Shown here piece after piece: positions 1,977 to 47,154 of a DNA stretch of 64,000 bases. The notes under the pieces were generated by a model. The model searched no databases, was not told where the DNA came from, and was given only the letters and a program-made list of their open reading frames with translations. The stretch comes from an uncultured Acidobacteriota bacterium (GTDB taxonomy: Bacteria; Acidobacteriota; Thermoanaerobaculia; Multivoradales; DATKCC01): contig CAVUJU010000005.1 in the NCBI GenBank assembly GCA_963741925.1, forward strand, positions 2,369,447-2,433,446, read 5' to 3'. The position numbers and the translations under genes are program-made. The first letter of the stretch is position 1; the number at the start of each line of letters is the position of its first letter.

Positions 1977-2462
1977 CTACCCCGATCCCAGCCGTTCCGG
2001 CTTCACCACCGAGTACGGGTACTCCTCGCGGCTTCGCACCAGGCGGGCCCTGACCGGGTTGTCCAGGAGGTAAGCGACCACCGCCTCCAGGCTCTCCCGC
2101 CGGCGGACGACGTGGTCCCAGAACGAGCGCTGCCAGAGGGGCTCGCCGTATCCCGCTCTCCGGACCCGCCGGGTGGAGTAGGACTTGAAGGCCCGGACCG
2201 TCTCGATGACCCGGGCCGCGTCGTCCAGGAGCCAGTGGAGGTGGCCGGGCATGAGGCAGGCCGCGAGAGTGGCCGCGTGCTCCGCGAGGGCCTCGAAGAC
2301 CGGCAGCGCGACTCGGGGAAGGGTGAACGGCTCACCGTCACCCACGGTGCAGAGGGTGACGTGCACCGGCCGCTGGGGCGGATACAGGCCCGGCGGCAGC
2401 CGGTTGCCGCGGCTGCGGCGCCAGGTGCGGTACACGCTGCTGGCCGGGGGCGTGCGCGTCAT
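1977..2462 (-). CDS. rayT: REP-associated tyrosine transposase (RAYT; IS200/IS605-like TnpA_REP)
   Basis: HuH-like HLHWLL, and the C-terminal stretch GEPLWQRSFWDHVVRRRESLEAVVAYLLDNPVRARLV typical of RAYT/IS200 TnpA (WQxxF.DH...Y..NPV); flanked both sides by REP hairpins. Confidence 0.8.
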   Translation of the reverse strand: MTRTPPASSVYRTWRRSRGNRLPPGLYPPQRPVHVTLCTVGDGEPFTLPRVALPVFEALAEHAATLAACLMPGHLHWLLDDAARVIETVRAFKSYSTRRVRRAGYGEPLWQRSFWDHVVRRRESLEAVVAYLLDNPVRARLVRSREEYPYSVVKPERLGSG

Positions 2463-6417: not shown

Positions 6418-6708
6418 GGGTCCCTCGTCGGGCCCGAAGCTCACCTCGGCGCCCACCACCTTCGAGGACATGGAGAGGCCCTGCCCCTCGCCCCGCTCCT
6501 CGCGGATCGAGCGCAGCCGGGCCAGGATCTCGCGCTCGGTCGCCGCGAACTCCTCGTCGCTGATCTCGCCGAGCTCGAGCCGCATCTGGGCCGCCAGGAG
6601 CTCCTGCTTCAAGTTGCCCTCGTCGTCCATCTCGGCCTCGACGGCCGCCGCCACCTTCTCGAGCACGAAGCGCAGCGGCGCGGTCAGCAGCCGGTCGATG
6701 ACGATCAC
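6415..6708 (-). CDS. gvpG: gas vesicle protein GvpG
   Basis: 97 aa, MIVIDRLLTAPLRFVLEKVAAAVEAEMDDE...ELGEISDEEFAATEREILARL matches the GvpG pattern; GTG start overlaps the gvpF stop (GTGA). Confidence 0.7.
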   Translation of the reverse strand: MIVIDRLLTAPLRFVLEKVAAAVEAEMDDEGNLKQELLAAQMRLELGEISDEEFAATEREILARLRSIREERGEGQGLSMSSKVVGAEVSFGPDEGP

Positions 6709-7571
6709 TCGTTGCCCACCGCGCGCTCGAGCTTGAGCCGGATGTTGACGAAGTTGTACGGCGGCCAGGGGCCGGTGTACTTGAAGCTCAGGTGGTCGTA
6801 GCGCCCGGCGACCTCCTTGACCCGGGCGTCGAAGTCCTCTTCGCGGTTGCGGCCGACCAGGAACGCGGCGTTGAGGATCATCTTCTCGCCGATCGGCTTG
6901 TTGGCGCGCGAGGCGACCGACACGTCGCCGAGGGAGATCATGATCTCGGAGGCCAGCTCCTCGGAGCGCTCCTGGAGCAGCGAGTCGACCAGGCGGCCGT
7001 ACTGCATCCTGGCGAAGTAGGTGGAGCCCCTCTGGGACTGGATCTCCTGGCGCAGGAGGCGGAGGTTCTCGTCCTCCTTCTCGATCTCCTGGATGATCAG
7101 ATCGGGCTCCCAGAGGACCTTGAGGCCGAACTCGAGCTTGCCCTGCATCTTCACCAACACGTCCTTGAAGGCGTCGTAGGCGCTGCGCAGGAGCTCGACG
7201 ATGTCCTCCTCGGTGCGGAAGACCGTGCCGAAGGACATGGGGATGACCGTGAACTGCTGCATCACGGTCTCGTTGACCCGCTCGTGGGCGAGCACGTTCT
7301 CCCGGGTCGGGTCGTAGACCTCGAGCGGGGTGTCGGAGGCGACCGCAGCGATGTCGCGGTAGCTCACGGTGCTCACCTCGGTGGGCTCGGAGCCGATCCC
7401 GGCGTGTCCGAAGCTGAGGTGCTCGTCGCTCTGGATGATGCAGTAGACGTACTTGCCGCTCGCCTGCGGGGCGGGACGCTCCCTCTCAGGCGAGGCTCCG
7501 GCCGCGGCGTCCGAGCGGCCGAGGGCCTCGGGCCGGCCGGTGGCCAGCGGCTCGTTCGACTGGTCGCTCAC
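6705..7571 (-). CDS. gvpF: gas vesicle protein GvpF/GvpL family (copy 1)
   Basis: KYVYCII...; C-terminal GPWPPYNF; GTG start overlaps the TGA of the upstream receiver gene. Confidence 0.85.
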   Translation of the reverse strand: MSDQSNEPLATGRPEALGRSDAAAGASPERERPAPQASGKYVYCIIQSDEHLSFGHAGIGSEPTEVSTVSYRDIAAVASDTPLEVYDPTRENVLAHERVNETVMQQFTVIPMSFGTVFRTEEDIVELLRSAYDAFKDVLVKMQGKLEFGLKVLWEPDLIIQEIEKEDENLRLLRQEIQSQRGSTYFARMQYGRLVDSLLQERSEELASEIMISLGDVSVASRANKPIGEKMILNAAFLVGRNREEDFDARVKEVAGRYDHLSFKYTGPWPPYNFVNIRLKLERAVGNE

Positions 7572-7981
7572 GATTCTCCTTTCGGCTCGTCGGCGGGTGC
7601 CGAGGACCTGCCGAGCTGGCGCCGTACCTCGCGTTCCAGCTCCTTGGGCACGACCGGCTTGGTGACCACCTCGTCACAGCCCGCGGCCAGGGCGCGGTCC
7701 CGCTCGCGCGACAGGGCGTGGGCCGTCAGGGCCACGATCTTGATGTGGCGGGTGCGCTCTTCGCTGCGCAGGAGGCGGGTCGCCTCCCAGCCGTCGACCT
7801 CGGGCAGCGACAGGTCCATCAGGATCACGTCGGGCAGGAGGTCGCGGGCCTTGGTCAGCGCCTCGGCGCCGTCCGCGGCCGTCGCCACGTCGTAGCCGCG
7901 GAAGGTCAGGTACTCGGCGCACAGCTCGCGCCCCGCGGCGAAGTCGTCGACCACCAGGACGAGCGGCTTCTCGGCGCTCAC
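7568..7981 (-). CDS. single-domain response regulator (CheY-like receiver)
   Basis: LVLVVDDF...D...LMDLSLPEVDGWE...KIVALTAHA receiver motifs; GTG start overlaps the HK stop (GTGA). Confidence 0.8.
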   Translation of the reverse strand: MSAEKPLVLVVDDFAAGRELCAEYLTFRGYDVATAADGAEALTKARDLLPDVILMDLSLPEVDGWEATRLLRSEERTRHIKIVALTAHALSRERDRALAAGCDEVVTKPVVPKELEREVRRQLGRSSAPADEPKGES

Positions 7982-18167: not shown

Positions 18168-18602
18168 TCAGCAGGCGATCTGCTGCTCGGGGGCGGCCGC
18201 GAGGTCCGAGCCCGAGACCAGGTCCTCGATCACCGCCACCAGCTCCTCGAGGTCGAAGGGCTTGTCGAGCATCCGGTCGGCCTGCGAGAAGTCGAGGAAG
18301 ATCCGCTCCCGGTCCGACGCCACGCCGAGGTTGCGCGCCGTCAAGAGGACGATCCTGAGGCCGGCCGGGTAGACCCCCTTCGCCTCATCCTCCCGCAGCA
18401 TGCGCGACACCCGGTAGCCGTTCTCCCGGGGCATCATCACGTCGAGCACCACCAGGTCCGGCTGGTTCGCGCGGGCCGCTCCCAGGGCTTCCACTCCGTC
18501 GCGCGCGGTCAGGACCTCGTAGCCCTCCTGCATCAGCCGGTACTTGACCGTCTCCACCACGTCGTCTTCGTCGTCCACCACCAGAATCTTGACTCCGCTC
18601 AT
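18168..18602 (-). CDS. single-domain response regulator (CheY-like)
   Basis: MSGVKILVVDDEDD...DLVVLDVMMPRENG...LTAR; own Shine-Dalgarno AAGGAGAG 5 nt upstream of the ATG. Confidence 0.8.
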   Translation of the reverse strand: MSGVKILVVDDEDDVVETVKYRLMQEGYEVLTARDGVEALGAARANQPDLVVLDVMMPRENGYRVSRMLREDEAKGVYPAGLRIVLLTARNLGVASDRERIFLDFSQADRMLDKPFDLEELVAVIEDLVSGSDLAAAPEQQIAC

Positions 18603-18605
18603 CAG

Positions 18606-18950
18606 TCTCTCCTTCTCGGTTTCGGTTGGCGTCCCGGCCCGCCTCCGGGGCGGCCGCCGCCGGCAGGCAGGTTGCGACGAGCTCCCGGCCCGACTCGCCG
18701 TCGTCCGGGAAGACGGCGGGCCCCAGGACGCGGGGCGGCGGCACCACGACTCCGTCGCTGCGGATCGCGGTCTCGGCCAGGCGCCGTTCGAGCCGGCGCC
18801 GGACGATCTCGGTGCCCTCCCGCGGCGTGGCCAGGAGGACCAGGACCAGGCGGCGGTGGGCCGGCTGGACGGTGAACAGGTCGCAGTCGCGGGGCAGGAC
18901 CTGGCGCAGGTCGTCGCGGACCGCGAGCAGCACCGAGAGGAGGCTCTCGG
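18606..18950 (-). other. ~115-codon segment with strong coding signal in the -1 frame relative to the HK body and the RR (ESLLSVLLAVRDDLRQVLPRDCDLFTVQPAHRRLVLVLLATPREGTEIVRRRLERRLAE...). Either an HK C-terminal extension or a small gene disrupted by indels
   Basis: third-codon-position G/C bias switches frame at the CGCCCGAG C-run; no start or stop at the junction. Confidence 0.4.
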
Positions 18951-20519
18951 GCGGGCGAGGGGCGCGAGCTTCGCCTCGGCGGTGCTCCAGCCGACCACCA
19001 GGAGGCCGAAGAACGGGTACTTCCGGTGCTCCCGGATCTCGCTCTCGAAGGCGACCGCTTCGTGGGCCCGGGCCAGGTCGGCCGGCAGGCGCACGAGGAA
19101 GCGGCTGCCGAGGCCCTCGGCGCTGGTCACGGAGAGGTCGCCGCCGTGGGCCCGCACCCTCTCCCGGGCGATCGAGAGGCCGAGGCCGGTGCCCCGGACC
19201 GTGCGGGTGAGGCAGTCCTCGGCCTGGTAGAAGGGCTCGAAGATCCGCCGGCGGTGCTCGCGGGAGATGCCCGGCCCGGTGTCCGAGACCGCGAGCTCGG
19301 CCCACCCGCCGTGGCGCCGGACGCCGACCTCGACGCGCCCGCCCGCCGGCGTGAGCTTGAGGGCGTTCGATACCAGGTTGGTGACCACCTGGGCGAGCCG
19401 CTGCGGGTCGGCGAGGACGGTGGGCGTCGGCCGGTCGAGCGCCAGGTCGAGCGTCACCGAGGAGGCCTCGGCCTGCGGGACGAAGGTGGCGCGGAGGTCG
19501 TCGAGGAGCCCGGCGAGGGGCACCGGCTCGAAGCGGTACTCGAGCTTCCCCGCCTCGATCTTCGACAGGTCGAGGAGGTCGTCGATGATCACCGCCAAGC
19601 GCTCGACGTTCCTCCGGGCCATGGCGAGGAACCGCTTCTGGGGCTCGGCGAGCGCTCCGGTCTGCTCGCGCCGGACCAGGTCGATCGAGCTCTTGATCGA
19701 GGTCAGCGGGGTGCGCAGCTCGTGCGACACGGTGGAGACGAAGGCGCTCTTGAGCTCGGAGAGCTTGGCCAGCTCCCGGTTCGCGTGCTGGAGCCGGCCC
19801 TCGACCCGGCGCCGCTCCTCGACCTCTTCCTCGAGGCGGCGGTTGGCGAGCTCCAGGCCGACGCGCACCTCCTCCAGGCGGCGCACGGCCTCGGCCTCGG
19901 AGTGGGCCCGGTTCTGCTCCCGGCGCACCCGGTCGACCAGGTAGCCGTAGAACGAGGCGACGGCGAACAGGAAGGGGATCCGGATGAGCGAAGCGGTGGT
20001 GAGGACGCCGCTCGCCCCCGACGTCGACAGGCCGTAGAGGTAGGCCGAGCAGACGACGACGGAGCCCAGGGCGATGAGCGCCAGGCTCTCGCCGATGGCG
20101 GCGAGGAAGAGGACGAAGAAGTAGAGGTAGAAGAACTCGGTGCCGAAGTGGCGGGTCAGGATCAGGGCGGTGGTGATCCACGCCCTGTCGGCCACCAGCA
20201 CTCCGGCGGTGAAGGGGCGGCTCCCGAGCCAGCGTGCGGGAAGCCTGGCGATCGCCACGTTCGAGGCGATCGCCAGGACGATGAGCGCGGTGAGCCCCGT
20301 CGAGAGCCCGGAGAACCCGGTCTCCGAGAGCACCATGTAGGAGGTCGCGATGATCAGGGTGAAGCGCAGCAGGACGAAGGCGTGGCCCCGGCTGCGGAGG
20401 GCCTGGCTGGATCCCCCCCGGAACCCCTCGACCCCCGTCCCGCCCCCGGGGGGCGAAGGGGATGCCCCCTCCCCGTCGCGATCGGGGCGTCGCTGGTTGC
20501 CCTCGGTCTCTTGGTCCAT
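18950..20519 (-). CDS. membrane sensor histidine kinase (multi-TM N-terminus + HisKA + HATPase_c); 3' end unresolved because of a frame break
   Basis: H-box SHELRTPLTSIK; N/G boxes VTNLVSNALKLT, GTGLGLSIARE; GC3 signal leaves this frame near 18950. Confidence 0.75.
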
Positions 20520-20532
20520 CGCCCGTCCAGGC

Positions 20533-24349: not shown

Positions 24350-24650
24350 GCAGGGCTCGAGCCCAACCGGTACCTGGGAGGGGGCGTCCCCTTCCCCCCC
24401 CTCGGGGGTGGGAAGGGGATCGAGGGGATGCGGGGGGGATCCGGTGGATCGTCCCCTTCCCCCCCCTCGGGGGTGGGAAGGGGATCGAGGGGATGCGGGG
24501 GGGATCCGGTGGATCGTCCCCTTCCCCCCCCTCGGGGGTGGGAAGGGGATCGAGGGGATGCGGGGGGGATCCGGTGGATCGTCCCCTTCCCCCCCCCGCG
24601 GGGGTGGGAAGGGGATCGAGGGGATGCGGGGGGGGGACCTAAAAGACGCG
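24350..24650. repeat. G-tract/C-tract tandem repeat array A (~4.5 units of 61-65 bp)
   Basis: unit GGTGGATCGTCCCCTTCCCCCCCCTCGGGGGTGGGAAGGGGATCGAGGGGATGCGGGGGGGATCC repeated head-to-tail. Confidence 0.9.
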
Positions 24651-28681: not shown

Positions 28682-28889
28682 AGTCGGCTGGAAGGTTTGG
28701 TGGGTAGCCACGCCCGCGGGGCGGGTGGCTTTCTCGGCGGCAAACTGCGCCGGCGAGAAACCACCGCGCCCCGCGGGCTGCCCCCTCGGCGGTCGAGGCG
28801 GGCCCTTCGCCGGGGGGTACCTCCCCGAGCTGGTGGGAGAGAAGGGGGGATCGGCGGGGTTGCCGGTTTCACCGGCGAGAGGCGTTCTC

Positions 28890-28965
28890 GGGCGGCGGCC
28901 CGGGCGGCCGAGCCACAGCTCGGCTGCTTCATAGGACTCGAACGCGTGAAGCGGCCGACCTCTGC
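28890..28965. repeat. solo REP-like double hairpin between convergent genes (possible terminator)
   Basis: GCCGAGC-CAC-AGCTCGGC and GGCCGAC-CTCTGC-GTCGGCC palindromes resembling the RAYT-flanking REPs. Confidence 0.6.
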
Positions 28966-29030
28966 GTCGGCCGACCGGGCCGGAGGCCCGGCCCCGCCGA
29001 GGTCTCGCAGCCGGGGCGGCAGCCGGGGCG

Positions 29031-29075
29031 GTGGCGTCCCCTGGGGGAGGGAAGGGGATCGAGGGGATGTGGGGA
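29031..29075. repeat. solitary unit of the G-tract repeat family
   Basis: GGGGAGGGAAGGGGATCGAGGGGATGTGGGG. Confidence 0.6.
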
Positions 29076-29083
29076 GATCCGCT

Positions 29084-30639: not shown

Positions 30640-30895
30640 GAAGCGGTGGTAGGGGGCGTCCCCTTCCCCCCCGGTGGGGAGGGAAGGGAATGGACGGGAT
30701 GTGGGGGGGATGCGGGGGGCATCCGGTCAATCGTCCCCTTCCCCCCCCGTGGGGAGGGAAGGGAATGGACGGGATGTGGGGGGGATGCGGGGGGCATCCG
30801 GTCAATCGTCCCCTTCCCCCCCCCCGCTGGGGTGGGAAGGGAATGGACGGGATGTGGGGGGGGGGATGCGGGAGGCATCCGGAAGACCGGCGGGT
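30640..30895. repeat. G-tract tandem repeat array B (~3.5 units of ~75 bp) in a divergent promoter region
   Basis: unit GTCCCCTTCCCCCCCCGTGGGGAGGGAAGGGAATGGACGGGATGTGGGGGGGATGCGGGGGGCATCCGGTCAATC. Confidence 0.9.
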
Positions 30896-30910: not shown

Positions 30911-31702
30911 ATGGAGCTCCGCCGCCTCGCCTGGACCGTCGTCACCTCGGAGAGCCTCGCCGAGAAGCTGGCGTCCCCGGAGGTGCCGCCGGCCGAGCTC
31001 ACCGACCGCGAGCCCGGGCCGGCGCTGCGCCTCGCGGCCCCGGGGCGGCCGCCGGGGCTCGAGATCCAGCCCGTCGCCCGCGCCCGCGTGCCGTCGATCG
31101 GCGGCATGGCCGACCCGGCGCAGCGCGCCCGGATCCTCCACGCCCTGGCCAACCACGAGCTCCAGGCGGCCGAGCTCTTCGCCTGGGCGCTCCTCGCCTT
31201 CCCCGGAGCCCCGCCGGCCTTCCGGCGCGGCCTGGCGGGCATCCTCCTCGACGAGCAGCGCCACACCCGCATGTACCTCGCCCGGCTGGAGGCCCTGGGC
31301 GAGCGCTTCGGCGCCCATCCGGTCAGCGGTTACTTCTGGAACAAGGTGGAGGCGATCGACTCGCCGGCCGCCTTCGTCGCCGCGATGTCCCTGACCTTCG
31401 AGAACGCCAACCTGGACCACACGGTGGACTACGCCGCCGCCGCCCGGGCGGCCGGCGACGGGGCGACGGCGGCGGTCATCGACCGCGTGCACCGCGACGA
31501 GGTGGAGCACGTGCGCTTCGGCTGGATCTGGCTCGAGCGGCTCAAGCCTCCGGACCAGTCGATGTGGGACGCGTTTCGCGCCCAGCTCACCTGGCCCCTG
31601 CGCCCGGCGAAGGCGCGCGGGGCGACCTTTCATCGCGCGGGGCGGGAGGCCGCCGGGCTCGACCCTGAGTTCATCCGCCGCCTCGAGGAGAGCGAGCCGT
31701 GA
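30911..31702 (+). CDS. ferritin-like DUF455 family protein
   Basis: HALANHELQAAELFAWALLAFP...DEQRHTRMYLARLEALG...GYFWNK. Confidence 0.7.
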   Translation: MELRRLAWTVVTSESLAEKLASPEVPPAELTDREPGPALRLAAPGRPPGLEIQPVARARVPSIGGMADPAQRARILHALANHELQAAELFAWALLAFPGAPPAFRRGLAGILLDEQRHTRMYLARLEALGERFGAHPVSGYFWNKVEAIDSPAAFVAAMSLTFENANLDHTVDYAAAARAAGDGATAAVIDRVHRDEVEHVRFGWIWLERLKPPDQSMWDAFRAQLTWPLRPAKARGATFHRAGREAAGLDPEFIRRLEESEP

Positions 31703-32770
31703 GCCCCAAAGCCGATGGGGGCGCCGATGAGAGCGCCGGCGAGCCGCGCCTGATCGTCGCCAACCTGGGCTGGGAGGAGGAGCTCGCAGGGGGTACCCGG
31801 CCGGGCGAACGAGCCCTGTCGAGGCGGGCGCGATCGGTGGTGGGTTCTGCCGCCGGCTGGCTCCGTCTGCTCGCCCGCGACGGCGACCGCCTCTGGGTAC
31901 CGGACGCCGCAGAGGCCGTCGACGTCGAGCCGCCGGGGGGCCGTCGGCTCGTCCTGCCGCGGGTGCGGCTGGAGCGTGGGGCCGCGGCCGGAATCGCGCC
32001 CGCGACGGAGGTGCTGGCCTGGGGGGAGAGCCCGGCCGTGGCGGCGCTCCGGCGGGGCTCACGGCCTTCCGGGGGAGCCTTCGCAAGCCACGGGTCGCTC
32101 CACCAGGCCCTCTGGTCGCTGGCTCCGGCGCCGCCGGAGGTCGCCGCCGCCTGCCACCATCGCGCCTTCGCCCTGGCGGCGGTCGAGGCGCTCCAGGAGG
32201 CGCGGCCCCGCGAGGAGGGGTGGGCGCTGCCCGGCGCGCGGATGGTCGCTTCCGTCGGCGAGCTCGAGCGGCACCTGGCGGCGGGCGGTGCGGCGGCGGG
32301 CGGCGGGCGCTGGGTGCTGAAATCGCCGTGGTCGGCGGCCGGCCGCGGGCGGCACCTGGGCACGGGGCCGGGCGACCTTCGCGAGCCGGCGAGCCGGCGC
32401 CACGTCGAGCGACTCCTGGAGCGCCACGGATCGCTCCTCTTCGAGCCGTGGGTGGACCGGCTGGCCGACTTCGGCGCCGCCGCCCTGGTGACGCCGGAGG
32501 GCCTCCGGCGGGTCGGCGTCCACGGCCAGGAGGTCGACGGTCGCGGGGTCTTCGCGGCGATCCAGCTCGCTCCGGAGCTCGCCGCCGACGAGCGCCGGCG
32601 CCTGGAGGCGGCCGTCGAGTCGGTGGGGGAGCGCCTGAGGGCCGCCGGCTACGTGGGGCCCTTCGGCGTCGACGCGTACCGCTTCCGGACGCCGGACGGC
32701 CGGCTCGTCTTCCGCCCCCTTTCAGAGGTCAACGCCCGGATGACCTTCGGGCTCCTCGCGCACGTCTTGA
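31699..32770 (+). CDS. hypothetical protein, possibly ATP-grasp-like; 3' end runs into repeat array C, so the true stop is uncertain
   Basis: GC3-biased ORF; GTG start overlaps the DUF455 TGA. Confidence 0.5.
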
Positions 32771-33730
32771 CCGGATGCCCCCCGCATCCCCTCGATCCCC
32801 TTCCCTCCCCACGGGGGGGAAGGGGACGGTTGACCGGATGCCCCCCGCATCCCCTCGATCCCCTTCCCTCCCCACGGGGGGGGGGAAGGGGACGGTTGAC
32901 TGGATGCCCCCCGCATCCCCTCGATCCCCTTCCCTCCCCACGGGGGGGAAGGGGACGGTTGACTGGATGCCCCCCGCATCCCCTCGATCCCCTTCCCTCC
33001 CCACGGGGGGGGAAGGGGACGGTTGACTGGATGCCCCCCGCATCCCCTCGATCCCCTTCCCTCCCCACGGGGGGGGGAAGGGGACGGTTGACTGGATGCC
33101 CCCCGCATCCCCTCGATCCCCTTCCCTCCCCACGGGGGGGAAGGGGACGGTTGACTGGATGCCCCCCGCATCCCCTCGATCCCCTTCCCTCCCCACGGGG
33201 GGGAAGGGGACGGTTGACCGGATGCCCCCCGCATCCCCTCGATCCCCTTCCCTCCCCACGGGGGGGAAGGGGACGGTTGACTGGATGCCCCCCGCATCCC
33301 CTCGATCCCCTTCCCTCCCCACGGGGGGGGGAAGGGGACGGTTGACTGGATGCCCCCCGCATCCCCTCGATCCCCTTCCCTCCCCACGGGGGGGGGAAGG
33401 GGACGGTTGACCGGATGCCCCCCGCATCCCCTCGATCCCCTTCCCTCCCCACGGGGGGGGGAAGGGGACGGTTGACTGGATGCCCCCCGCATCCCCTCGA
33501 TCCCCTTCCCTCCCCACGGGGGGGAAGGGGACGGTTGACTGGATGCCCCCCGCATCCCCTCGATCCCCTTCCCTCCCCACGGGGGGGAAGGGGACGGTTG
33601 ACTGGATGCCCCCCGCATCCCCTCGATCCCCTTCCCTCCCCACGGGGGGGAAGGGGACGGTTGACCGGATGCCCCCCGCATCCCCTCGATCCCCTTCCCT
33701 CCCCACGGGGGGGGGAAGGGGACGCCCCCT
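32760..33730. repeat. C-tract/G-tract tandem repeat array C (~15 units, 62-66 bp; G-run length varies 7-10)
   Basis: unit CCGGATGCCCCCCGCATCCCCTCGATCCCCTTCCCTCCCCACGGGGGGGAAGGGGACGGTTGA is the reverse complement of the array A/B unit; no unique spacers. Confidence 0.95.
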
Positions 33731-33768
33731 CCCGCTCTCTCGGCTCCCCGCGAAACTCGGCTCGTTCG

Positions 33769-35346
33769 TCACGATTCTGGCCGAATCAGACTCCTCGCGT
33801 AGAACTTCGCCAGGTCCTCCTTGAGCTGCTTGCGCGCCTCCGGGTGGATGTAGATCATGTGGCCGGACGGGTAGTAGCCCCACGTGAGGTTCTTCTCGAG
33901 CGAGGGGTCGAGGCCCATGTGCGAGACCGTGTACTCGGTCTCGAAGAAGGGCGTCGCGAAGTCGAAGTAGCCGTTGGCGAAGAAGACCTCGAGCCCCGGG
34001 TTCGCCGACATCGCCTGGCGCAGATCCTCCGCGACGTCGGGCAACGGGGCACCGCGACCGAACCGCCCGCCGCCGTGATGGTCGTCCCAGTCGCGCCCGA
34101 CCTCCGGGTAGTTCGTCGGCTTGTAGAGGTCGTCGCTCTCGTACCCCAGCTCGCCGGTCGAGTACGCGTTCCAGGACGCGACGAACGCCGCCGCGAAGGC
34201 GGCCTCCGAGGCGTCCGACTCCGGGCGCTCGCCGGCCGCGTCGTGATCGATGCCGAGATACCGCGCGTCGAGCCGCCCCACGGTGCGCCGCTCGCCCCGC
34301 AACAGCTCCTTCTGGAAGCGCCCCGGAGCGATGCGCAGGTTCGCCTCGCGCAGGAAGTCCTCGGGCATCGCCGTGTAGCGGTGGAGCTTCGCCACGACCG
34401 CGTTGCGCTCCGCCTCGCCGAGGTGGCTTCCCTTGGCGAGCGCCGCGGCGTAGTCGCCGGAAGCGAACTCGCGCACCTCGTCCAGGAAGGCGTCGAGGTC
34501 GGCGGGCTTCGGATCGATCCGGTCGTGGTACCAGGCCGTCGCGGCCATCGTCGGAAGGTAGAGCTCGTACGGCAGGTCGTTCGAGAAGGGCGGCCCGGCG
34601 AAGTCGTGGTAGGGGTTCAGGTACGAGGAGATCATGACCGCGCCGTTGAACGCCATCCCCTGGTCCTGGAGCCAGGCGAGGAGCCCGGCATTGCGGGTCG
34701 TTCCGTACGACTCGCCGAGGAGGAACTTCGGCGAGTTCCAGCGCCGGTTCTCGCCCACCCAGCGCTCGATGAACTGCCCGAACGCCGCGATGTCCGCGTC
34801 GGTACCGTAGAAGTCCTTCGGCTTGCCTTTGCCGACGATCCGGGAGTAGCCCGTACCCATCGCGTCGATGAAGACGAGATCGGTCACGTCGAGCAGGCTT
34901 TCCGGATTCGGCTCGATCTCGTAAGGAGGCGGGGGCGTCGGCTCGGCGTCCGAGGCGTCGACCCGCACCGGCCCGAACGATCCCATCTCGAGCCACATCG
35001 TCGAGGAGCCCGGGCCGCCGTTGTAGCAAAACGTCACGGGCCGCTTCGTCGCGTCGGTGATCCCGTCTTGGGTGTAGGCGACATAGAACATCCGCCCGAT
35101 CGTCTCGTCCTTGTCGTTCGTGAGATCGATCGTCGCGGCTGTCGCCGTGTACGGGATCGTCCGTGCGCCGAGAGAGATCTTGTGGTGCGTCACCGCGGCC
35201 GCGGGCGCCGGCTCGACTTTCTCCGCCTTCGGTTTCTCCATCTCGCCGGCCTTGCCCATCGGCGGTTCCGCGGCCAGGGCGATCGCCGCGCTGAAAAGAC
35301 CCGCAGAGAGACCACAGCCGATGACGAACCTCGCAAACTGTTTCAT
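33769..35346 (-). CDS. secreted serine carboxypeptidase, peptidase S10 family
   Basis: signal peptide; GESYGT catalytic serine motif. Confidence 0.85.
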   Translation of the reverse strand: MKQFARFVIGCGLSAGLFSAAIALAAEPPMGKAGEMEKPKAEKVEPAPAAAVTHHKISLGARTIPYTATAATIDLTNDKDETIGRMFYVAYTQDGITDATKRPVTFCYNGGPGSSTMWLEMGSFGPVRVDASDAEPTPPPPYEIEPNPESLLDVTDLVFIDAMGTGYSRIVGKGKPKDFYGTDADIAAFGQFIERWVGENRRWNSPKFLLGESYGTTRNAGLLAWLQDQGMAFNGAVMISSYLNPYHDFAGPPFSNDLPYELYLPTMAATAWYHDRIDPKPADLDAFLDEVREFASGDYAAALAKGSHLGEAERNAVVAKLHRYTAMPEDFLREANLRIAPGRFQKELLRGERRTVGRLDARYLGIDHDAAGERPESDASEAAFAAAFVASWNAYSTGELGYESDDLYKPTNYPEVGRDWDDHHGGGRFGRGAPLPDVAEDLRQAMSANPGLEVFFANGYFDFATPFFETEYTVSHMGLDPSLEKNLTWGYYPSGHMIYIHPEARKQLKEDLAKFYARSLIRPES

Positions 35347-46942: not shown

Positions 46943-47154
46943 GTGGCGGGAAGCGACTCCGGACACGGCGGCCACCGGCCCCGGGGGAACCCGCTCGGCG
47001 CGACCTCACCGGCCCCGGGCCTTGCTCGTCGCAGAGACCTCCCGGATCGTCCCCCGCACCCTCGATCCCTCGCTGCCGATCAGGGCGGGGAGGCGGCGGG
47101 TCGTTCACGACCGGGCAGAGGGGCTTCCCGGTGTAGTCTTGCCCCCCGGTCATC

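Follow-up and report, generated by a model that had tools for sequence, protein, structure and literature searches.

An array of 15 hairpin-bearing units between two convergent genes of an uncultured Thermoanaerobaculia bacterium as a probable local amplification of an interspersed non-coding repeat

The window analysed here, a 64,000-nucleotide stretch of contig CAVUJU010000005.1 from an uncultured Thermoanaerobaculia bacterium (Acidobacteriota), carries between two convergent genes a ~1-kb tandem array of a hairpin-bearing unit. The question raised by this locus is whether the array is part of a gene, a regulatory site, the substrate of a transposase, an assembly error, or the local product of a repeat that also occurs elsewhere. 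We consider it likely that the array arose by local amplification of an interspersed hairpin repeat of uncultured Thermoanaerobaculia, designated here as H, which is non-coding and probably selfish. Direct support comes from the dispersal of H, the conservation of its hairpin, its positional bias, the differences between relatives in its presence and copy number, and the replacement of two gene ends at the array site. An earlier note on this DNA, made from the sequence alone, described the array itself and missed its main point, which is that one copy of a genome-wide element has entered this site in this lineage only, has been amplified, and has overwritten the ends of two genes.

Tandem Repeats Finder (TRF) reports a period of 63, 15.0 copies, 97% matches and a score of 1755 over positions 32767-33724, and a table of the individual units agrees with it, bearing out the earlier description of a ~1-kb array of about 15 head-to-tail copies. 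Each unit follows the formula (R)TTGAY-CGGATGCCCCCCGCATCC-CCTCGAT-CCCCTTCCCTCCCC-AC-G(7-10)AAGGGG-ACG. Cut at TTGAC, the units measure 63, 66, 63, 64, 65, 63, 63, 63, 65, 65, 65, 63, 63, 63 and 63+ nt, with G-runs, in the same order, of 7, 10, 7, 8, 9, 7, 7, 7, 9, 9, 9, 7, 7, 7 and 9. The 15 units are otherwise identical, differing solely in this G-run and in C or T at unit position 6, which confirms that they vary mainly in G-run length (7-10); the C6 run of the first hairpin is invariant. Abutting units are joined by a constant linker of 5-6 nt with no spacers, the internal units following each other directly and the last being closed by a 3' cap, CCCCCNCCC. The combined C/T and G-run pattern has no clear higher-order periodicity, despite TRF rows at 384 and 447 bp. 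The window as a whole, the G+C content of which is 72%, has 11 matches to the hairpin pattern, where shuffled sequence would be expected to give 0.02.

The unit is not confined to this array. Family-wide it is ~64 bp long, with a 5' end of (R)TTGAY-CGGAT, a C-rich stretch, a hairpin of the form CCCCTTCCC-N-CCC / GGG-GGGAAGGGG, and then ACG. A covariance model built on this second hairpin and run unfiltered over the window finds 24 copies at 5 loci and one relic (Table 1), that is, four loci besides the array rather than the three that had been counted before. The genome-wide search proposed in the earlier note was carried out by scanning for the 21-mer CATCCCCTCGATCCCCTTCCC, with each prokaryotic species represented by one genome; it returned at least 75 loci, nearly all in metagenome-assembled genomes (MAGs) of Thermoanaerobaculia/Acidobacteriota, from both long-read (MFD...) and short-read assemblies. 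Over the 75 loci listed, the covariance model counts at least 141 copies. The usual array there has 1-5 units, arrays of 2-12 units are present in several independent assemblies, and only one array, of ~12 units in L044, comes near the 15 of the window. No H-like match was found among viral contigs or plasmids, and the exact left junction of the array had no match in a metagenome scan.

Table 1. Coordinates of the array, its neighbours and related repeats. Positions are those of the window unless a family locus (L number) is given.
Feature	Position	Strand	Evidence and remarks
H array, 15 units	32767..33724	+	TRF; unit table; 15 full-length covariance-model matches, 75-83 bits
3' cap CCCCCTCCC + module B (GCTCTCTCGG..AACTCGGCTCGTTCGTCACGATTCTGGCCGAATCAGAC)	33725..33796	+	module B also 3' of H in L030 (x3), L064, L036 and L074
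Upstream gene, conserved hypothetical, no Pfam family	31699..32766	+	native last ~13 codons and stop lost
Peptidase_S10 gene, convergent	33769..35346	-	Pfam; compared with L076 and L077
Four H units, 65-bp variant	24385..24642	-	directly 3' of the TAG stop of an RlmI-like methyltransferase gene
Three units, 75-bp H variant	30657..30871	-	between divergent VWA and DUF455 genes
Solitary diverged H copy	20407..20464	+	upstream of a histidine-kinase gene; covariance model 66.5 bits
Truncated H copy, 3' arm lost	29035..29082	-	directly 3' of the VWA TAG stop; covariance model 39.1 bits
Decayed H relic (CCGGATCGTCCCCCGCACCCTCGATCCC...)	47042..47093	+	covariance model 22.6 bits, E about 1e-3
Module A copies	L064 1930-2064; L038 4590-4725; L074 294-427; L054 3522-3655 and 5606-5739; others		none in the window
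RAYT gene	1980-2462	-	NCBIfam REP_Tyr_transpos NF047646 79.6 bits (cut-off 80); PDB 4ER8 TnpArep E 9e-4

The expectation that the unit would match no known insertion sequence (IS), CRISPR or Rfam family held in all three tests. At the gathering score Rfam has no match in the window, and across 14 family loci it finds just two tRNA genes, unrelated to H; an E-value scan of the array returned only sub-threshold generic GC-rich hairpins of the miRNA type. There are no unique spacers between units and no cas domains in the Pfam-scanned open reading frames (ORFs) of the window. As for an IS, the unit is 63 bp long and translations of the repeat give spurious Pfam matches only. A literature search for repeats in the class Thermoanaerobaculia found nothing relevant. 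The H family is previously undescribed; its kind, the interspersed hairpin repeat, is well known.

The second hairpin, a 12-14-bp G/C stem in the aligned copies, is the sole conserved structure in the H unit. In the covariance-model alignment of the loci listed, 97.2% of its alignment cells are paired, a value matched by 0 of 500 shuffles, and slid registers are clearly worse. Compensatory changes occur at three pairs of this stem, from CG to UA in 9 sequences and from UA to CG in 8. The stem takes the form CCCTCTCCC/GGGAGAGGG in one subfamily and CCCTTTCCC/GGGAAAGGG in another, and variants with a ~22-nt nested insertion retain it. The earlier note had described two internal inverted repeats; both do occur in the unit, but only the second is conserved across the family. 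The first hairpin (GGATGC/GCATCC) exists in the subfamily of the window, and was rejected as a conserved structure when its registers GGATGC/GCATCC and GGATCG/CGATCC both proved 71% paired, equal to shuffles. An alignment with MAFFT followed by RNAalifold was also discarded, having misplaced gaps and yielded a meaningless 5-bp helix; the covariance-model alignment was used instead.

What stood at the array site before H can be seen in two syntenic relatives, recovered through homologues of the upstream protein: the closest (L076/L078) has ~92% nucleotide identity to the window and the more distant (L077/L079) 82-84%. Both have the same gene order, and in neither is there any H between the hypothetical gene and the S10 gene, where a spacer of 28-80 bp is found. 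Homology to the relatives stops at 32766-32774 and restarts at 33797; the 15 H units and the adjoining module B, together ~1,030 bp, stand where the relatives have ~85 bp. Those ~85 bp contained the last ~13 codons and the stop of the upstream gene as well as the last 5 codons and the stop of S10. The neighbours are ordinary chromosomal genes (AKR, VWA, DUF455, the conserved hypothetical, Peptidase_S10, M48 and GGDEF/EAL).

Both gene ends have been rewritten. On the upstream side, the homologues P0003, P0005, P0013 and P0017 end 8-15 aa beyond ...FGLLAHVL, and the gene in the window is left without a stop because TTG ACC puts the TGA of the element out of frame. The upstream ORF therefore enters the array in frame and stays open across units 1-3; the G8 and G9 units then change its frame, and it ends with a stop at 33345. 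In its public annotation the source contig accordingly has a 548-aa read-through product (P0001; 31699-33345, +), the last 192 residues of which are translated repeat; LTGCPPHPLDPLPSPRGGRGR is the peptide that translation of the array would give. The Molybdopterin_N Pfam match of this product is an artefact, a sum of sub-threshold repeat matches. On the other side, module B contributes, from its opposite strand, the last 9 codons and the stop of S10, making its C-terminus chimeric: it reads FY, then ARSLIRPES and stop, where the relatives read FYEAAMH and stop.

Other sites differ between the same genomes. Downstream of the RlmI-like gene L079 has one decayed copy against four units in the window, and at the VWA/DUF455 site L076 has a decayed half-copy and L077 none against three units in the window. 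Over ~21 kb of shared synteny, the relatives have 0-1 recognisable H copies, as compared with 23 in the window. We also observed that in the closest relative (MFD01721 contig_14873) the orthologue of the upstream gene (P0004) and the Peptidase_S10 gene are frameshifted or split, which suggests long-read indel errors or pseudogenes. A separate peculiarity of the window is the long ORF at 18171-20531 (-), which comprises a histidine kinase, a low-complexity stretch that looks out of frame and a response-regulator receiver, and is probably two genes read as one in a high-GC frame with few stops; the apparent N-terminus of this ORF is a translated H element.

The distribution of H relative to genes is biased. 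Among the loci listed, 29 of the arrays between called genes lie at convergent and 2 at divergent sites, with 21 co-oriented and 22 anti-oriented arrays between tandem genes. Compared by Fisher tests with element-free gene pairs of the same loci, convergent sites are over-represented (odds ratio (OR) 2.6, p 0.005) and divergent sites under-represented (OR 0.24, p 0.012), and in tandem contexts H has no strand preference (21 vs 22). Of 99 arrays, 19 have the stop codon of a long ORF in the same orientation inside the 7 nt that precede the 5' end, mostly as TGA-YCGGAT, and 7 have the start codon of an opposite-strand ORF at the H 5' end.

H forms part of a larger mosaic at several loci. There it has immediately on its 5' side module A, which is non-coding, conserved over ~140 nt and without any Rfam family at the gathering score, and on its 3' side module B, of ~70 nt; the array of the window has B and lacks A. 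Full A-H(n)-B composites are found in L064, L036, L074 and L030, and most H copies are without A, B or both. Wherever module A occurs it is directly 5' of H, and it holds a hairpin that is conserved in position and whose sequence varies from copy to copy; module A may be either a structured RNA or the left-hand portion of some larger element. Short ORFs of 20-70 codons opposite module A were rejected as a gene, since they are not conserved. In the predicted fold of the L064 composite the end of A pairs with part of B, with a weak z of -2.1, and by eye this pairing is not reproduced in L074 or L036. L029 and L030 have tandem repeats of 129-130 bp made up of H plus neighbouring sequence, which points to amplification as a local duplication with variable boundaries.

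Other palindromic repeats share these intergenic regions. A RAYT-type repeat (GAAGCGGCCGAGCT) adjoins H in the window at 28905-28960 (-) and in L007, L008, L030, L032, L037, L044 and L064, the two forming mosaic clusters of unrelated hairpin families. The intergenic region of AKR and VWA has, at ~28700-28800 (-), a third palindromic motif, GGTGGTTTCTCGCCGGCGCAGTTTGCCGCCGAGAAAGCCACC, which is non-coding and has its core at 28724-28765; this motif belongs to no Rfam family, is kept in a syntenic relative, and occurs in L077, L079, L022 and L050 (3 copies). The more distant relative also has a classical ~190-bp miniature inverted-repeat transposable element (MITE) with perfect terminal inverted repeats (TIRs; CTAGCCTGGACTATTCATGAG...CTCATGAATAGTCCAGGCTAG), at L077 ~850-1050 and L079 ~1930-2110 on the - strand as read, which is absent from the window.

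From these observations we propose the following course of events. H would have arrived at the array site once this lineage had diverged from its closest sampled relative (~92% nucleotide identity) and would then have grown in place to 15 units, by replication slippage or by unequal recombination between units. Slippage within the G-run may have added length heterogeneity, if that heterogeneity is real; the earlier note took the G-run variation as the signature of slipped-strand mispairing, which is plausible but unproven, the runs of 9-10 lying beyond the range of 4-8 seen in ~120 other copies. H itself is presumably selfish or neutral and tolerated at the 3' ends of genes, and we suggest that the array is tolerated because it sits between convergent gene ends. 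If transcribed, a unit would fold, whichever its orientation, into a very stable hairpin, and might incidentally block read-through or 3' exonucleases.

Several points weigh against this account of a selfish, locally amplified repeat. The number of units and the lengths of the G-runs are those of the assembly alone. The compensatory changes in stem 2 are found mostly in one subfamily and are inherited, and thus represent few independent events. Searches turned up no mobilising enzyme, target-site duplication (TSD) or TIR, and mobility is deduced from presence/absence and dispersal alone. The same GTTGAY linker joins units in arrays at independent loci, which a purely local origin does not require. 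Finally, the exact abutment to stop codons (19/99) and start codons (7/99) may mean site specificity or a role in expression.

The most serious alternative, although we still think it unlikely to be the explanation, is that artefacts of assembly or base-calling account for the array's size, for the heterogeneity of its G-runs, or for both. The source contig is 3.08 Mb long and hence probably a long-read assembly, a related long-read MAG has frameshifted genes (P0004, and the S10 gene split in L076), and among the loci listed G-runs of 9-10 occur in the window alone, the ~120 other copies, from short-read and long-read MAGs, having 4-8 nt with a mode of 6-7. Arrays of several units are nevertheless recovered in independent assemblies, as given above, and short-read contigs often terminate inside H, as they would at a real multi-copy repeat. 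Within the array, moreover, the C/T pattern among units is no homopolymer error, and the G-runs are bimodal, eight units having 7 and five having 9, which argues for real differences; the flanking genes are intact in the window where those of the relative are frameshifted. An artefact is unlikely in the existence of the array and quite possible in some of its G-run lengths.

A role as a selected cis-acting RNA element is more doubtful. H would in that case be a terminator lacking a U-tract, a stabiliser of 3' ends, or a modulator of translation or termination at stop codons, and the array an exaggerated version of it. The predicted RNA fold of a unit is indeed very stable by RNAfold, at -40.2 kcal/mol (z -4.4) on the + strand and -39.6 kcal/mol (z -3.4) on the - strand (-21.2 and -20.4, respectively, with DNA parameters); the stem is kept by compensatory changes, H is over-represented between convergent genes, and 15 of 27 close cases have a co-oriented stop codon 0-1 nt from the element. 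In tandem contexts, however, there is no preferred orientation, and the G:U pairs of the stem (7) do not outnumber its A:C mismatches (13), so that nothing points to one transcribed strand being under selection. Nor does the array resemble an intrinsic terminator. No terminator-like site was found in 32000-34500, the hairpin being followed by ACGG or ACGCCCCC with no T/U tract, and scans of the array for promoter and terminator consensus sequences found none. The orthologous sites of the relatives work without H, and 15 copies with two overwritten gene ends are unlike a tuned regulatory site.

Slightly less probable again is that H belongs to the REP class and is moved on single-stranded DNA by a RAYT/HUH Y1 transposase that reads the hairpin and the 5' TTGAY, the arrays being by-products. 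In size H is REP-like, it is an extragenic palindrome whose 5' flank is conserved, it prefers gene 3' ends as REPs do, and no TSD rises above permutation expectation over 96 arrays (all offsets, k = 3-8); the constancy of the linker across loci would also fit a site-specific process. The window even contains a RAYT gene (Table 1), complete with the HLH motif and the Y..NPV tyrosine. This gene, however, is flanked by another repeat: inverted doublets of TGAAGCGGCCGAG-CTCYGC-CTCGGCCGG lie on its two sides, at 1746-1973 and 2509-2719, so that 1733-2733 is a textbook RAYT/REPIN locus, and four RAYT homologues on other contigs (L080-L083, 50-81% identity) have the same inverted flanking by TGAAGCGGCCG and a covarying hairpin. 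None of these five genes is flanked by H, the H covariance model giving noise there. For the one RAYT lineage examined, then, H is not the associated repeat, and the true REP family of the genome is the TGAAGCGGCCG repeat. H units, in addition, run head-to-tail on one strand with no inverted doublets, and tblastn with the window RAYT over the 64-kb window and 79 loci found no second RAYT.

Two features of the surroundings of the RAYT locus were noted in passing. Gas-vesicle genes lie a few kb from it (GvpL/GvpF at 6708-7673 (-) in the window; GvpK and Gas_vesicle in a relative, L080 1-1057), and in the same relative, L080, a group II intron reverse transcriptase adjoins the RAYT gene.

Further searches for a means of mobilisation were equally negative. 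The H ends, (R)TTGAYCGGAT and ACGCCCCCNCCC, are not complementary and thus form no TIR, and clustering of nearby ORFs brought out no recurrent transposase near H, the only repeated neighbours being histidine kinases, ABC ATPases, sigma-54 activators, HlyD, MMPL and LepA. One could still imagine, as an improbable alternative, that H or the A-H(n)-B composite is the substrate of an undescribed kind of dispersal, for example by an enzyme acting on single strands, of HUH type or another, whose insertions fall exactly at stop or start codons. Head-to-tail concatemers with a constant GTTGAY junction would then arise, perhaps as rolling-circle copies of a circle that had been excised, the array would be the footprint of that process, and slippage in the G-run would shift the frame of the fused ORF.

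The earlier note also drew attention to G-quadruplex (G4) potential, and the prediction itself was confirmed: the canonical motif (G3+N1-7 x4) occurs once per unit on the - strand (15/15) and nowhere on the + strand of the array, which has five C-tracts per unit. The array thus holds 15 of the 22 - strand G4 motifs in the window. It is very unlikely, however, that the array acts through a G4 on the - strand and an i-motif on the + strand, as a barrier to replication or transcription or as a switch tuned by the G-run. The G-tracts simply complement the C-rich arm and loop of a hairpin whose conservation is by pairing, not by tract length; subfamilies such as CCCTCTCCC/GGGAGAGGG interrupt the G-tracts and retain the pairs; the variable G-run sits on the + strand, which has no G4 motif; and a hairpin of -40 kcal/mol competes. 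The potential for G4 and i-motif formation looks incidental, and there is no sign that selection has acted on it.

Least probable of all is that the array encodes a 21-aa Pro/Gly-rich C-terminal repeat domain with frameshifts from homopolymer errors, for although the modal unit of 63 bp (8-9 of 15 units) is 21 codons, the 66-bp unit is likewise a multiple of 3, no stop of the upstream ORF precedes the array, units 1-3 are in frame and a 548-aa product stands in the public annotation, the Pfam match of that product is a sum of sub-threshold repeats, the element is intergenic in both orientations at ~100 other places, homologues, some of them 77-79% identical, stop 8-15 aa past the junction, the syntenic relatives have no array, and the G+C content at third codon positions of the unit in that frame is ~71% against 90-97% in the real genes of the window. 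The earlier conclusion that the array is non-coding therefore stands, on grounds other than its own: it rests on the dispersal of H between genes in both orientations, its absence from the site in relatives, and homologous proteins that end ~13 aa past the junction. The argument from reading frame was mistaken in its details, since the usual unit length is divisible by 3 and the upstream ORF does run in frame for three units.

If H is the selfish interspersed repeat that we take it to be, its value is chiefly for annotation and assembly. H breaks short-read assemblies of Thermoanaerobaculia, gives rise to spurious read-through ORFs such as the 548-aa "protein" with its false Molybdopterin_N match, and rewrites the C-termini of neighbouring genes, and its copy number, which differs between close relatives, could be used as a strain marker of the variable-number tandem repeat (VNTR) type. 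It would also be an additional modular repeat of the BOX-like kind, from an uncultured, high-GC lineage that has been little studied, and the presence of a separate bona fide REP/RAYT system in the same genome provides a natural comparison of two hairpin-repeat families. No long-standing question is opened by it; the abutment to stop codons and the recurring linker of the arrays are curious, and would be no surprise to a specialist.

Compared with known systems, H lacks the defining features of REPINs, MITEs, CRISPRs, ISs and intrinsic terminators. Like a MITE it is small, non-autonomous, dispersed and structured, with presence or absence differing between relatives; unlike one it has no TIRs, TSDs or related IS, and the TIR-bearing MITE of L077/L079 looks quite different. 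With the REP, REPIN and BIME elements and their RAYT transposases (Bertels & Rainey 2011, PMC3116915; PMC3337134), H has in common a short extragenic palindrome, a conserved flank, the lack of a TSD, a position near gene 3' ends and clustering in mosaics, and it adjoins the true REP family of its own genome in L008, L032 and at window 28905-29082. It differs from them in that no RAYT is flanked by it and in that its units are head-to-tail, not inverted doublets.

Nearer to H are the mycobacterial interspersed repetitive units (MIRUs), reportedly described by Supply and colleagues in 1997 and 2000. MIRUs are co-oriented with the genes of operons and contain small ORFs that link stop and start codons. 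Both families have tandem units of 40-100 bp at many dispersed intergenic loci of a high-GC genome, with a copy number that varies by lineage (orthologous H sites have 1 vs 4 and 0 vs 15 units) and with unit ends that overlap the stop codon of the upstream gene. In H such abutment occurs in just 19 of 99 arrays, the two orientations are equal in number (21 vs 22), most sites are convergent gene ends, and the unit carries a strong hairpin.

In workings and look H appears closest to the pneumococcal BOX element, and it may also be called MIRU-like and, more loosely, REP/BIME-like. The hosts of BOX are Firmicutes of ~40% GC, as against the 72% GC Acidobacteriota hosts of H. Given phylum and base composition homology is not expected, and the two are likened by architecture; most H copies, furthermore, are without A, B or both, no convincing A-B pairing or TIR was seen, and the array here reaches 15 units. 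The BOX element of Streptococcus pneumoniae has the structure boxA-boxB(n)-boxC (Croucher et al. 2011, PMC3049150), and the A-H(n)-B composite likewise places a variable tandem middle module between two different end modules. The two also share a stable predicted fold, over-representation between convergent genes, variation in size between strains and the modification of neighbouring gene ends. In the pneumococcus, BOX, RUP, SPRITE and IS all follow a convergent-rich, divergent-poor pattern, which has been read as tolerance downstream of genes (PMC3049150).

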